Source: Methanomassiliicoccales archaeon UBA280
GTDB lineage: Archaea; Thermoplasmatota; Thermoplasmata; SG8-5
Assembly (NCBI GenBank): GCA_002499085.1
Contig: DAKD01000032.1
Coordinates: 1,315 to 65,314, forward strand
Direction of reading: 5' to 3'
DNA length: 64,000 bases
This document shows, in pieces, positions 189 to 39,662 of this stretch. Both the position numbers and the translations under genes were made by a program. The notes beneath the pieces were generated by a model, which searched no databases, was not told the origin of the DNA, and was given only the letters and a program-made list of their open reading frames with translations. How positions within the stretch are numbered: position 1 is the first letter of the stretch; every line of letters starts with the position of its first letter.

Positions 189-299
189 TTAGAGCAGTTG
201 GCATACAGCTTATTCAATTTAAACATTGCCATAAGGCACATTCATCGGGAGTTGGATCGGCATTCTCAATCCATCAGCAGAGATCCGACGATGGCCCGT

Positions 300-19251: not shown

Positions 19252-19798
19252 GCTCACGGTGGAGTTTTTCCATCCTGGCGGCCTGTTTCTCGTGGCCTTT
19301 CCCGCGCTCCCGGGCGACAGCGTCAGCGACCTTCCAGCGCTTAGGGCCGCGCCCATCGTGGGTGAACAGGTTGTCCGCATGCGCCACTATCTTCTCGGCA
19401 GGTGTCTCGGGCATGTAGTTTCCAGGAGGAAGGCCGAGCTTCTCCGCTTCCTCAGTGTCTATCCCGGCTCCGATATGGCGCTCCACGATCCTGATTATGG
19501 CCCCGTCCAGGTTTCTTTTCCTGAGAATGTCGGCCCCGGCAACGGCATGGCCGATGCCATGGGTCTTGGCACGGCCGATGTCATGGAGGAGGGCTGCGCG
19601 GCTGATCATGTCCATCGCCTCTTGGCCGAGGTTCATCCTCCTGGCAATTTTCAGGGCCAGGTGCTCGACTGCCATGCAGTGGTCGATAACCGTGTTGGGG
19701 CAGTTCTCCTCCGCGAGGTAGGAAAGGCAGGTTTCTACCGAAGGGACTCTTCCGCGACAGGAGCATGAGTGAGCAGAGGCATCGGATGCATCATTCAT
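19211..19798 (-). CDS. HD-domain phosphohydrolase (small archaeal HD family)
   Basis: H...HDIGR...H..D pattern (DHCMAVEH, LLHDIGRAKTHG, VERHIGAG). Start overlaps the trm56 stop. Confidence 0.75.
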   Translation of the reverse strand: MNDASDASAHSCSCRGRVPSVETCLSYLAEENCPNTVIDHCMAVEHLALKIARRMNLGQEAMDMISRAALLHDIGRAKTHGIGHAVAGADILRKRNLDGAIIRIVERHIGAGIDTEEAEKLGLPPGNYMPETPAEKIVAHADNLFTHDGRGPKRWKVADAVARERGKGHEKQAARMEKLHRELSESAGIDLDEIA

Positions 19799-20297
19799 TT
19801 TCCAGCACCGTCTTTCCCCTGGGGTCCGGGACTATCTTCATCCGGCCGTCCGCGAAATCGGGCATCTTCTCCCCGCGGTACTTGTATAGGAACAGGGCCA
19901 GGGCCGCGACCTCGGAATGGGGCTGGTTTCCCACGGATATGTTGATCGTGGCCAGTTCATAGACCTCGCGCGGAACCTTCTCCGCCCCGACGACTATCAT
20001 GAGGTCTTTCTGCGGGTCCAGTGCCCCGAGTCCCTTTTCCAACTCCTCTCCGTACATTGTGAGATGCACAATCTGGCCCTTGAAGCCCTTCATCTGCTCG
20101 CGGTGCTTCACCCCGGTCTTTATCGAGACCTTCCCGCCCCATCTTTCGCAGGTCGAGACGAAATTCCTCTCGAGATCCGGGTCCCTGGTGTCCACGAGAA
20201 TCCGGTCGGCGCCGAAGGCCCTAGCGACGAGCGCGACATGGGTGGTTATCCGCTTGTCCCTCTCTGGCCTGTGGCCTATCCTCAGAACCGTTATCAA
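19791..20297 (-). CDS. trm56: tRNA (cytidine56-2'-O)-methyltransferase aTrm56 (SPOUT)
   Basis: The N-terminus MITVLRIGHRPERDKRITTHVALVARAFGA is characteristic of aTrm56. Typical ~170 aa. Confidence 0.85.
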   Translation of the reverse strand: MITVLRIGHRPERDKRITTHVALVARAFGADRILVDTRDPDLERNFVSTCERWGGKVSIKTGVKHREQMKGFKGQIVHLTMYGEELEKGLGALDPQKDLMIVVGAEKVPREVYELATINISVGNQPHSEVAALALFLYKYRGEKMPDFADGRMKIVPDPRGKTVLENE

Positions 20298-20301
20298 AAA
20301 A

Positions 20302-20811
20302 TCACTCTTCGTCGTGCAGCTCTATCCTGTGCCCGCGGTAATCGAACTTCGCGGACCGCTTCACAAGGCTCTTGAGCATGGTCTGGCTCAGCTTCAGCTC
20401 CTCTGCGACGTCGCCCGCGAACCTGCCCTCCTTGCCAATCGACTTGAGAATTTTGGCCTCCAGTTTCTTGAAGTCCTTGTCAGGCATGCCTGCGGCGGCG
20501 ATCACGTCGCTTATCTCGAACACCGAGCAGGATGTATTGATGTGGAACGCCGAGTAATACGTATGATAAGCTTTGACAGGCTTCTGCTGGCTTCCCTCCG
20601 GAGGCTGCTGCCACCTTGTCTCGACCAGCTTCATCTTGTTGAAGAGCCTGAGCACGACCGGGCCTTCCTCCCCGTACTTCTCCTCTATTTCCTGGGCAGT
20701 CTTCCAGCCCGCGGAGACTTCCTTGAATATCTCCCGCTTCATCTCCGTGTCCACGGCCCTGAATGTCGAAACCAGTTCGGAAGGGTCGTTCACAACCTTT
20801 ATCCTGTTCAT
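20302..20811 (-). CDS. Winged-helix (ArsR-like) transcriptional regulator
   Basis: wHTH-like N-terminal segment (FKEVSAGWKTAQEIEEKYGEEGPVVLRLFNKMKLVE) and a second HTH-like C-terminal segment. Start trimmed to the Met at 20811, because the longer ORF would overlap the tRNA on the other strand. Confidence 0.65.
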   Translation of the reverse strand: MNRIKVVNDPSELVSTFRAVDTEMKREIFKEVSAGWKTAQEIEEKYGEEGPVVLRLFNKMKLVETRWQQPPEGSQQKPVKAYHTYYSAFHINTSCSVFEISDVIAAAGMPDKDFKKLEAKILKSIGKEGRFAGDVAEELKLSQTMLKSLVKRSAKFDYRGHRIELHDEE

Positions 20812-20914
20812 ATGACCGCACCTATATGCTGATTTAAAGATATAAAGATGACACATTATTTGGATTGGCCTGAAACGACAAGGTTTTATAGGGTGTCCCA
20901 GATGCCCGGCATGT

Positions 20915-21068
20915 GCCGAGATGGCCCAGCCCGGTAAGGCGCAAGACTGGAAATCTTGTGTCCGCAAGGATGCGGGAGTTCAAAAGGGGCTCGGAGTCAT
21001 TTCATTATCTCCGAGCTGGCGAATCAGGTTGATTGGATTCGTGCCCCGTGGATATCTCCCTCTCGGCG
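20915..21068 (+). tRNA. tRNA-Ser (anticodon GGA) with a ~70-nt non-canonical intron in the T-loop (about 20985/6 to 21054/5)
   Basis: Acceptor GCCGAGA (20915-21) pairs perfectly with TCTCGGC (21061-67), discriminator G. Anticodon arm CAAGA-CTGGAAA-TCTTG. Long variable arm TCC-GCAA-GGA. T-stem GGGAG (20974-78) pairs with CTCCC (21056-60), but the T-loop TTCAAA is followed by ~70 nt containing two hairpins. TTTTATA box ~27 nt upstream and a T-run downstream. Confidence 0.8.
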
Positions 21069-21103
21069 CTTAGCTTTTTTATTGTTGGGATTCGCGCCTC
21101 GAG

Positions 21104-21312
21104 GTGCGGCGATGCTAAAAATTGTCACATGGATACGCCGCACCCTGCGCCGAATTGGACTGCAAAGTGATTTCACAATTCGGCTTGCTCGCGCTGACGC
21201 TTCCAAATTGCCAAGGAGCTACAGCGCTCGTCTCGGCGCTTTCCATGCAAGAGCATAGATAAGTAATAGAAGTGCGGCGATGCTAAAAATTGTCACATGG
21301 GTACGCCGCACC
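21104..21312. repeat. Direct repeat of a 41-bp hairpin unit GTGCGGCGATGCTAAAAATTGTCACATGG(A/G)TACGCCGCACCCTGCGCCGA at 21104-21144 and 21272-21312
   Basis: Two copies with one mismatch. Each folds as an 8-bp stem GTGCGGCG/CGCCGCAC around a 24-nt loop. Confidence 0.8.
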
Positions 21313-21383
21313 CTGCGCCGACTACCGTAATGTGTTGAATGCATCTGTTATCAGTTGATGGCTATGCATTCGACCATGGCCGG

Positions 21384-21522
21384 CTCCCGGGTTGACGGCT
21401 GAATCAGGGCCATGAAACATAAGCACTTGAAAGCAAGAGGTGAATGCGGGAACTGAATCCCGCAAAAAAAAAGCATTCGCCATGAATTGCCTATGAGATT
21501 GTTGCGCAATTCAAAAAAATTC
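21384..21522. repeat. Dispersed ~130-bp intergenic repeat, copy 2 (copy 1 at 300-428)
   Basis: Same ordered blocks as copy 1, in the same orientation. Confidence 0.75.
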
Positions 21523-21642
21523 GGTAATCAGCAATCTGGCAGCGCCATGATTACCGATAGATAGCTTTTAATACCGGCGCTGTCTAGATGCATTGTCCAG
21601 AAGATGAGAGATTCATCATCGTGGACAACAGGAGAAAAAACA

Positions 21643-21792
21643 ATGTATAACAGCGACAGAGAGATGCACAAGGCCACTTGTGCGGATTGCAAGCAGGAAT
21701 GCGAAGTGCCGTTCAAGCCTTCGGAAGACAGACCAGTATATTGCAGGGATTGCTTCCAGAAGCACAGGCCGCCGCGAAGGGACAGATATTGA
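21643..21792 (+). CDS. CxxC-x17-CxxC zinc-binding small protein
   Basis: MYNSDREMHKATCADCKQECEVPFKPSEDRPVYCRDCFQKHRPPRRDRY, giving CADC-x17-CRDC and a basic tail. Start trimmed to the Met at 21643. Confidence 0.75.
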   Translation: MYNSDREMHKATCADCKQECEVPFKPSEDRPVYCRDCFQKHRPPRRDRY

Positions 21793-39540: not shown

Positions 39541-39662
39541 TTTGACGGTCAGAGCGGTGGGGCCACACCCGGTCTCATTCCGAACCCGGAAGTTAAGCCC
39601 ACCTGCGTTCTGCGCAGTACTGTGGTGCGAGAGCCCACGGAAAACGCAGAACGCTGTCAGCC
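39541..39662 (+). rRNA. rrf: 5S ribosomal RNA (stand-alone, not linked to 16S/23S in this window)
   Basis: Conserved core GGTGGGGCCACACCCGGTCTCATTCCGAACCCGGAAGTTAAGCCCACCTGCG. The terminal helix pairs UGACGG (5') with CUGUCA (3'). End coordinates are +/- 3 nt. Confidence 0.9.

Follow-up and report, generated by a model that had tools for sequence, protein, structure and literature searches.

A tRNA-Ser(GGA) Gene with a Predicted T-Loop Intron in an Uncultured Order of Thermoplasmata

Positions 20915-21068 of the window analyzed here (the whole 64,000-nucleotide stretch of contig DAKD01000032.1 from Methanomassiliicoccales archaeon UBA280) very probably hold a functional tRNA-Ser(GGA) gene that is interrupted in its T-loop, between nucleotides 59 and 60, by an intron that would be spliced as one of the bulge-helix-bulge (BHB) type. 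This high confidence applies to the explanation as a whole, which comprises the gene itself, a BHB-like precursor, splicing by the endonuclease EndA and the ligase RtcB, and an insert that is a shortened member of a structured intron family. The source is a metagenome-assembled genome (MAG) of 37 contigs and 77% completeness. Its lineage is an uncultured order of Thermoplasmata, whose MAGs are labeled at NCBI as Methanomassiliicoccales or as Thermoplasmata archaeon. The locus is a known kind of intron in an unexpected lineage.

Results

Architecture of the Interrupted Gene

An earlier note, made from the letters of the window alone, had proposed a tRNA-Ser(GGA) split by a T-loop intron of about 70 nucleotides (nt) near position 59/60. 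All the parts that it listed are present (Table 1). When segments 20915-20984 and 21055-21068 were joined in silico, ARAGORN recognized the resulting 84-mer (about 85 nt had been expected) as tRNA-Ser(gga) with a full cloverleaf. The spliced product has the hallmarks of a canonical class II tRNA, namely G73, U8, A14, a D-loop GG, U33, and TTCAAAT, and in exon 1 U8 is followed in order by the D-arm (with GG in its loop), the anticodon arm, and the long variable arm. Only the borders required adjustment: exon 1 ends at 20984 rather than 20985, and T21055, which is nucleotide 60, belongs to exon 2, while the remaining parts stand as first described.

In its unspliced form, the locus escapes standard annotation, as the earlier note had anticipated. 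ARAGORN makes no tRNA call, Rfam yields no match at the gathering score, and a permissive Rfam search returns a 21.7-bit partial match that covers the 5' part only. The note's remark that a spurious minus-strand open reading frame (ORF) runs across the tRNA also holds, in that the ORF at 20302-20967 overlaps the 5' part; its plausible start is an internal ATG at about 20811. The 70-nt insert is present once in the genome (no second copy by local BLAST). It has no Rfam family match at the gathering or permissive thresholds (E <= 1), and a by-eye search for a C/D-box guide RNA, such as those in tRNA-Trp introns, found no C or D boxes in it.

Table 1. Coordinates of the tRNA-Ser(GGA) gene, its predicted structural elements, and other features mentioned in the text (window positions unless a contig or locus is given; G000 is this genome).
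Feature	Position	Strand	Remarks
TTTTATA, TATA-box-like, putative archaeal promoter	20884-20890	+	Read from the sequence; ~25-30 nt 5' of the tRNA start
Exon 1, tRNA-Ser(GGA)	20915-20984	+	ARAGORN cloverleaf of the spliced sequence
Exon 1 acceptor 5' strand, GCCGAGA	20915-20921	+	Followed by U8
Anticodon GGA	20948-20950	+	Loop CTGGAAA
T-stem 5' strand, GGGAG	20974-20978	+	
T-loop nucleotides 54-59, TTCAAA	20979-20984	+	
Central 4-bp helix	20979-20982 with 21049-21052	+	U54 U55 C56 A57 with UGGA; read by hand
5' splice-site bulge	20983-20985	+	A58 A59, cut, A (first intron nt); faces unpaired G21048
Intron	20985-21054	+	Exactly 70 nt; tRNA position 59/60
Distal helix	20986-20990 with 21043-21047	+	GGGGC with GCCCC; RNAfold, T-arm plus intron
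Intron hairpin P2	20989-21016	+	GCTCGGAG ... CTCCGAGC; arms 20989-20996/21009-21016 when extended
Intron hairpin P3	21019-21042	+	GCGAATC ... GATTCGT; 21019-21025 with 21036-21042
3' splice-site bulge	21053-21055	+	U A, cut, U60; canonical 3-nt bulge adjoining the T-stem
Exon 2	21055-21068	+	U60 at 21055; no CCA encoded
Exon 2 T-stem 3' strand, CTCCC	21056-21060	+	
Exon 2 acceptor 3' strand, TCTCGGC	21061-21067	+	Closes the 7-bp acceptor stem
Discriminator G73	21068	+	As expected for tRNA-Ser
T6 run, putative archaeal terminator	21075-21080	+	T-runs also trail orthologous genes
53-nt module, two copies	21101-21153, 21269-21321		96% identical, 168 nt apart; hairpin GTGCGGCG...CGCCGCAC
11-nt copy of tRNA 3' end plus trailer	21231-21241	+	TCTCGGCGCTT; 170 nt downstream of the real end, outside the gene
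tRNA-Ile(GAT)	1-59, continuing outside; L055:368-474	-	Canonical 32-33-nt anticodon-loop intron
Relic behind intact tRNA-Ile	L055:205-327 = G000:C24:1104-1226	-	Just outside the window start
R1 copy upstream of tRNA-Asn	G000:C37:13530-13640	-	Followed by leader and first ~22 nt of tRNA-Asn
R1 tandem pair	G000:C20:53-166, 189-293		Each followed by a duplicated tRNA 5'-end piece
R1 copy	G000:C7:46007-46075		Downstream of a Leu-like tRNA
Other seven split tRNA genes (L048-L054): Leu-CAG, Ser-GCT, initiator Met, Ala-TGC, Ser-CGA, Arg-CCT, Arg-TCG	G000 C8:3097-3313, C15:8648-8848, C16:69831-70063, C22:66328-66500, C23:5363-5478(-), C33:8337-8448, C36:4881-5089(-)		
RtcB ligase gene	G000:C8:23953-25260		PF01139 match, 613 bits
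Trm56 gene	19791-20297	-	~620 nt upstream of the tRNA; 2.4e-59, 200 bits (cut-off 223)
62-aa protein	21604-21792	+	CxxC-x17-CxxC zinc ribbon; TIGR04272, 1.5e-20
5S rRNA gene	39541-39662	+	97 bits

A BHB-Like Fold at the Exon-Intron Junctions

In a BHB motif, each strand passes from the outer helix through four central bases and a 3-nt bulge into the other helix. At this locus, the T-stem GGGAG/CTCCC takes the place of the outer helix, and the remaining elements can be assigned as listed in Table 1. A sub-fold of the T-arm plus insert in RNAfold recovers the T-stem, the distal helix, and both hairpins that the earlier note had described within the insert, with P2 formed by 6 bp (20991-20996 with 21009-21014); the pairing between GGGGC and GCCCC that it had proposed is the distal helix. 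In the same sub-fold, only two of the four central pairs appear, and their register is shifted by one.

The geometry was assessed in 15 inserts at position 59/60, eight from Ser(GGA) genes (this genome, six congeners, and the genome G021 from another family of the order) and seven from other tRNAs of this genome. Summed over the set, the central helix reaches 58 of 60 possible pairs, whereas 2000 shuffling trials averaged 25.7 and never exceeded 38; the pairing of UUCR with YGAR is complete in 13 of the inserts and lacks one pair in each of the remaining two. For the distal helix, the total is 85 pairs, as against an average of 32 and at most 49 after shuffling. The sequences of the distal helices vary, with GGGGC/GCCCC, AGAU/AUCU, CAUCC/GGAUG, and CGAAG/CUUCG among the versions found, and the fact that they pair nonetheless amounts to covariation. 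Without exception, two intron nucleotides and then T60 precede the 3' strand of the T-stem. On the 5' side, the commonest form (nine inserts) has one intron nucleotide unpaired and one extra nucleotide opposite. Within the genus, P2 is paired in 93.8% of cells across six Ser(GGA) inserts, and two of its pairs have changed on both sides.

A BHB-like motif, which the earlier note had suggested looking for at both junctions, can thus be folded in a form that is strict at the 3' site and slightly relaxed at the 5' site, and this geometry recurs in all 15 related inserts. By analogy, position 59/60 may be viewed as a structural twin of the canonical position 37/38, each consisting of a 5-bp stem and a 7-nt loop, with the sixth base of the loop followed by the intron. 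A gene for Trm56, the tRNA C56 2'-O-methyltransferase, lies upstream of the tRNA at a distance of about 620 nt. Its position beside a gene whose C56 sits in the central helix of the predicted motif is probably a coincidence.

Conserved Exons and Variable Inserts in Relatives

The locus was compared by BLAST with 60 relatives, and the sequence that follows each match was read genome by genome. Many matches break off precisely at query base 70, where exon 1 ends. Besides this genome, six members of the genus carry an insert at 59/60, of 63 nt in G001, 72 nt in G003, 80 nt in G005, 127 nt in G006, 133 nt in G002, and 143 nt in G007. The remaining congener, G004, has no insert: its gene reads ...GGGAGTTCGAA directly followed by TCTCCCTCTCGGCG, identical to the predicted spliced junction, GCGGGAGTTCAAATCTCCCTCTCGGCG, and because its flanks are of the same kind, the gene is an orthologue. 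Outside the genus, the Ser(GGA) genes read from further genera and families within the order and class have no insert, with the exception of G021, which carries one of 140 nt. The congeners of G021 (G015 and G018) have Ser(GGA) genes without an insert, and its own insert is of a "CGAAGA" subtype that is seen in other tRNAs of this genome, which suggests an independent gain. A second Ser(GGA)-like match in G021, on contig C151, was rejected as an intron-less pair of Ser(GCT) and Ser(TGA) genes.

It was considered whether the split gene could be an artefact of MAG assembly or binning, given a 77%-complete assembly in 37 contigs. This is extremely improbable, because six further genomes of the genus, assembled independently, have the same architecture at the orthologous locus, with conserved flanks, and the MAGs whose record titles were at hand stem from different studies.

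Exons and inserts have evolved at different rates. Exon 1 is 98.6% identical to those of the five congeners compared, and exon 2 is 100% identical in the same five and in G021; the inserts among the congeners compared are only 40-75% identical. As judged from these alignments, the contrast is what a working gene with a rapidly changing intron would show, and not what a decaying pseudogene would. The Ser(GCT) gene has a 37-nt hairpin insert in G003 and one of about 118 nt in this genome and G007, which indicates that inserts turn over at a fixed site. The Ser(GGA) inserts of G002 and G006 (L005 and L006) contain an A7...T7 hairpin. Its T7 run might act as a terminator and hamper expression of exon 2 unless read-through is efficient.

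Other Interrupted tRNA Genes in the Genome

The genome was scanned for a T-stem followed by TTCRAN, an insert, a complementary T-stem, and a closing acceptor stem, and candidates were kept if ARAGORN accepted the spliced form. A first, loose version of this T-loop scan gave mostly false positives and became usable once the ARAGORN filter was added; its results pertain to position 59/60. At least eight tRNA genes, including the Ser-GGA locus with its 70-nt insert, are split at this position. T-loop inserts of 133 nt in Leu-CAG, 118 nt in Ser-GCT, 135 nt in Arg-TCG, 37 nt in Arg-CCT, and 33 nt in Ser-CGA are, like that of Ser-GGA, the only intron of their gene. The initiator Met gene combines an insert of 128 nt with 30 nt at the canonical site, and Ala-TGC one of 66 nt with 33 nt. 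Six of the seven other split genes are detected by neither ARAGORN nor the Rfam tRNA model. The seventh, Ser-CGA, is partly detected, through a truncated 32-bit Rfam match and an overlapping ARAGORN call with wrong borders. Because essential single-copy tRNAs, such as the initiator, are among the split genes, the organism must splice such inserts.

Canonical 37/38 introns were identified in Ile-GAT, initiator Met, and Ala-TGC. In the first two, the 5' side is imperfect to a degree comparable with the T-loop versions (the Ala-TGC junction could not be placed reliably), so that an enzyme able to splice these introns should cope with the T-loop introns as well.

No other tRNA-Ser(GGA) gene was found in the assembly with ARAGORN or BLAST, which settles for this assembly a check that the earlier note had proposed. 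One apparent second gene, called "tRNA-Ser(gga)" by ARAGORN at C24:1266-1374, is in fact tRNA-Ile(GAT) under a wrong name: it is of class I and 77 nt long, with the loop CT-GAT-A and an intron in the anticodon loop (a 33-nt insert according to Rfam). Calls for Pyl, SeC, Tyr (with a 1351-nt intron), His(atg), and Asn(att) made by ARAGORN in intron mode were treated as false positives and not used.

Consistent with hidden genes, the Rfam tRNA model recovers 19-22 tRNAs from this genome, depending on the cutoff, and 23-28 from congeners that are 89-93% complete, compared to 35-43 in most other near-complete genomes of the class. A few other families are also poor in tRNAs by the Rfam count. G030, G042, and G053 (family f13), together with G031 and G056, yield 25-28. 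These genomes are near-complete and lie outside the order, and they may contain tRNA genes interrupted in other ways that go undetected.

An Order-Specific Insert Family and Its Cassettes

The inserts of 120-140 nt align as a common three-hairpin architecture. The alignment comprises those of Leu-CAG, Ser-GCT, Arg-TCG, and initiator Met from this genome and those of Ser-GGA from G021, G007, G002, and G006; in 19 of its 30 predicted pairs, both partners have changed and pairing is preserved. R1, a covariance model derived from these long inserts, has the hairpins P2, P3, and P4 and finds 10 copies in this genome and matches in 15 of 22 genomes of the order, with up to 13 per genome. At a stricter cutoff, matches are confined to 14 genomes of the order, with none in 179 other genomes of the class, and the family is therefore order-specific. 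The 70-nt insert of the window is not among the R1 matches. It has P2 in common with the long Ser(GGA) inserts of congeners, a short P3, and no P4. Judged by this comparison, its P3 is the shortened counterpart of the long P3 in the 120-140-nt inserts, and the insert as a whole would be a reduced derivative of the three-hairpin family.

Some R1 copies are not intronic. Their place is next to tRNA genes, and the 5' or 3' end of the respective tRNA is repeated behind them (Table 1). A related arrangement stands behind the intact tRNA-Ile gene, where a degenerate 5' half of a T-stem with GTTCAAA precedes an R1-type module that breaks off beyond its second hairpin; an identical duplicate of exon 2 (TCTCTTTAGGCCCA) comes next, and a T-run last. 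This relic resembles the displaced 3' portion of an older form of the gene with a T-loop intron, and it may be the footprint of intron loss by recombination.

Copies of tRNA ends also occur at the locus under study, where the T6 run is followed in order by a 53-nt module, the 11-nt duplicate of the tRNA's 3' end, a second 53-nt module, and dispersed repeats. Similar copies of 3' ends, starting from position 60, are found behind Arg-CCG, Gly-GCC, Asp (two), Arg-TCT, Ile, Glu-TTC, and Ser-GCT. Within this genome, the 53-nt module is specific to the locus, and related sequence lies downstream of Ser(GGA) in G004 and G007. The dispersed repeats, at 21396-21560, recur on contigs C11, C12 (several), C13, C14, C16, C22, C35, and C7, and near the start of C24. 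As read from their arrangement, the downstream repeats show recombination activity at tRNA ends, all of it outside the gene.

Such activity invites the suspicion that the gene itself is dead, its T-loop broken by a mobile module or by integration at its 3' end, with no functional tRNA produced. Beyond the repeat-rich region behind the gene, with its 3'-end copy and two hairpin modules, this reading can draw on the modules related to the long T-loop inserts that also occur as free cassettes beside tRNAs with duplicated tRNA ends, and on the relic behind tRNA-Ile, which is clearly dead. At the locus itself, in contrast, the exons are intact and strongly conserved while the insert evolves fast, and all orthologues preserve the BHB geometry. 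The insert shows neither a target-site duplication nor flanking direct repeats nor an ORF, and no integrase lies between the repeats. The earlier note had itself set an integration-disrupted remnant against its proposal; no att scar is apparent, and the 3'-end copy lies outside the gene. The assembly contains no other Ser(GGA) gene for UCC/UCU codons, and essential single-copy tRNAs, the initiator among them, bear the same kind of insert. A disrupted gene is therefore considered very unlikely, and a functional, spliced tRNA-Ser(GGA) gene remains the preferred explanation.

Splicing Enzymes

The genome encodes the ligase RtcB (Table 1). For the endonuclease, the relatives are informative: one EndA gene was found in all seven congeners and in 22 of the 26 genomes searched (this genome counted), each a single reading frame with two tRNA_int_endo domains, and no separate β subunit was found in the relatives. 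In congeners, EndA is about 352 residues long with an N-C-N-C layout, and the Tyr/His/Lys catalytic pattern is kept only in the C-terminal repeat. The closest relatives of solved structure are the fused Methanopyrus kandleri enzyme (5x89, 4.1e-39) and the Archaeoglobus fulgidus α'2 enzyme (1r0v, 1.6e-28). As a single polypeptide with two repeats, of which only the C-terminal one keeps the catalytic pattern, the EndA of the lineage is of the plain α'2 type.

Several observations weigh against an intron spliced by EndA. The 5' splice site is relaxed, with three nucleotides opposite a single one (G21048). In the unconstrained minimum free energy (MFE) fold of the 154-nt precursor, the acceptor stem and P2 are kept and the tRNA body is misfolded; the full-length MFE was not used as evidence either way. 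EndA was found neither with the PF01974 profile nor with tblastn in this 77%-complete assembly; because the gene that adjoins EndA in congeners is also absent here, the region was probably not assembled, rather than the gene lost. In addition, the catalytic repeat of the congener enzymes has no equivalent of an insertion of about 10 residues in the Aeropyrum pernix α subunit (3P1Z_B alignment), which we take to be the Crenarchaea-specific loop. It aligns without that gap to the Methanocaldococcus jannaschii α4 enzyme and with small gaps only to the A. fulgidus α'2 enzyme. The comparison, which addressed the crenarchaeal type of insertion, thus gave no indication of an (αβ)2 or ε2 enzyme with a broad-specificity loop.

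Such an enzyme would be expected from the literature. According to one report, non-canonical introns are cut only by (αβ)2 and ε2 enzymes (PMC5829648), and Euryarchaeota with α4 or α2 enzymes are described as having one intron per gene, at the canonical position, and strict enzymes (PMC4090602). The α'2 EndA predicted for this lineage is at odds with that rule and adds to the points against. The statement of the earlier note that introns at 59/60 are rare in euryarchaeal lineages agrees with the published record (PMC4090602, PMC3239211).

Based on this mismatch, the insert might be removed or tolerated by a route other than EndA and RtcB, such as self-splicing, a new endonuclease, or two cooperating half-molecules. 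The combination of an α'2 EndA lacking the broad-specificity loop with a relaxed 5' site speaks for such a route, in that the published rule predicts poor cleavage. With lengths of 70 nt here and 33-37 nt in sister tRNAs, the inserts fall far short of the size of group I or II ribozymes, and the Rfam search gave no intron family at E <= 1. The junction geometry is exactly as expected for EndA, the resident enzyme must in any case cope with canonical Ile and initiator introns that are comparably imperfect, and relatives with the gene carry a single EndA and no separate β subunit. An unconventional route is accordingly given little credence, and splicing by EndA and RtcB is favored.

Neighboring Genes

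A protein of 62 amino acids with a zinc ribbon is encoded between the dispersed repeats and the gene for an ADP-forming acyl-CoA ligase. Elsewhere in the window lies a 5S rRNA gene; no other rRNA gene scored above threshold in the window.

Discussion

A Model for Expression of the Gene

The data suggest a simple model for how the tRNA would be made. Transcription from the TATA-like element at 20884-20890 would yield a 154-nt precursor, in which the T-stem, the pairing of U54-A57 with UGGA, and the GGGGC/GCCCC helix would together build a BHB-like motif. EndA is predicted to cut after A59 (20984) and after A21054, whereupon RtcB would join the halves into an 84-nt tRNA, to which CCA would be added. 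The excised insert would belong, in shortened form, to the order-specific family of structured T-loop introns, which has spread among many tRNA genes.

For practical purposes, a large share of the tRNA genes of this genus appears to be missed by standard finders, with 23-28 detected at 89-93% completeness. Missed tRNA genes would distort both the decoding capacity and the completeness estimates of these uncultured archaea.

Two points are of wider interest, the conflict between the lineage's enzyme and the published rule, and the connection of introns with cassettes. With regard to the former, at least eight genes split at 59/60, two of them with two introns, and inserts that reach 143 nt within the order stand against a plain α'2 enzyme. 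Either α'2 enzymes accept BHB motifs on the T-arm with slightly relaxed 5' sites, or another factor helps. With regard to the latter, introns and cassettes of one module family, whose presence varies within a genus, provide material for the study of how archaeal tRNA introns pass from one gene to another.

A more far-reaching scenario, put forward tentatively and with less than even expectation, is that the order was colonized by a mobile structured module that exists both as a spliceable 59/60 intron and as tRNA-end cassettes, that its footprints record gain and loss at the level of DNA, and that a plain α'2 enzyme processes the relaxed introns. If so, the pattern of presence and absence together with the tRNA-Ile relic would represent intron gain and loss by recombination at tRNA ends, which would be novel for archaeal tRNA introns, and an ordinary α'2 enzyme without a specificity loop would break the rule of co-evolution between intron and endonuclease.

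Comparison with Known Systems

A search of the accessible literature returned no report of T-loop or other non-canonical tRNA introns for Thermoplasmata or Methanomassiliicoccales. The closest parallel comes from ARMAN-2 (Ca. Micrarchaeum acidiphilum), in which BHB introns at 59/60 interrupt pre-tRNA-Cys(GCA) and pre-tRNA-Pro(GGG) (Fujishima et al. 2011, PMC3239211). The two systems share the site, the use of the T-stem as outer helix, a relaxed hBH-type or strict BHB form, and genes that ordinary tRNA finders do not detect (PMC3239211). They differ in the enzyme, which in ARMAN-2 is a three-unit ε2 endonuclease with a broad-specificity loop and here a predicted two-repeat α'2 endonuclease without a loop insertion of the crenarchaeal type (the only type compared), and in the inserts, which here are up to 143 nt long and make up a conserved family with three hairpins.

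In Thermoproteales, multiple non-canonical tRNA introns and a proposed transposition of introns have been described (Sugahara 2008 and Fujishima 2010, as relayed in PMC4090602). The likenesses are that many tRNA genes are affected, that some have two introns (here initiator Met and Ala-TGC), and that unrelated tRNAs share related introns, an indication of spread between genes. By the same account, the Thermoproteales are Crenarchaeota with (αβ)2 enzymes and introns at many positions, whereas the inserts reported here all lie at 59/60, the only site scanned; the present family is limited to one order of Thermoplasmata and also occurs as cassettes with duplicated tRNA ends.

Methanopyrus kandleri offers another euryarchaeal exception with a non-canonical intron, located in the pre-tRNA-Glu(UUC) D-loop and associated with an (αβ)2 EndA (Kaneta et al. 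2018, PMC5829648). Its enzyme consists of separate α and β subunits, in contrast to the single α'2 polypeptide and the T-loop site found here.

Finally, euryarchaeal tRNA genes are described as having only one intron, at the canonical position (PMC4090602). Canonical 37/38 introns, which are processed by α4 or α'2 EndA, match the T-loop introns in enzyme type, in the 5-bp stem and 7-nt loop with the intron after the sixth base, in the pairing of four loop bases with the 3' end of the intron, and in the 3-nt bulges. The difference is that the T-arm, not the anticodon arm, carries the motif predicted here.

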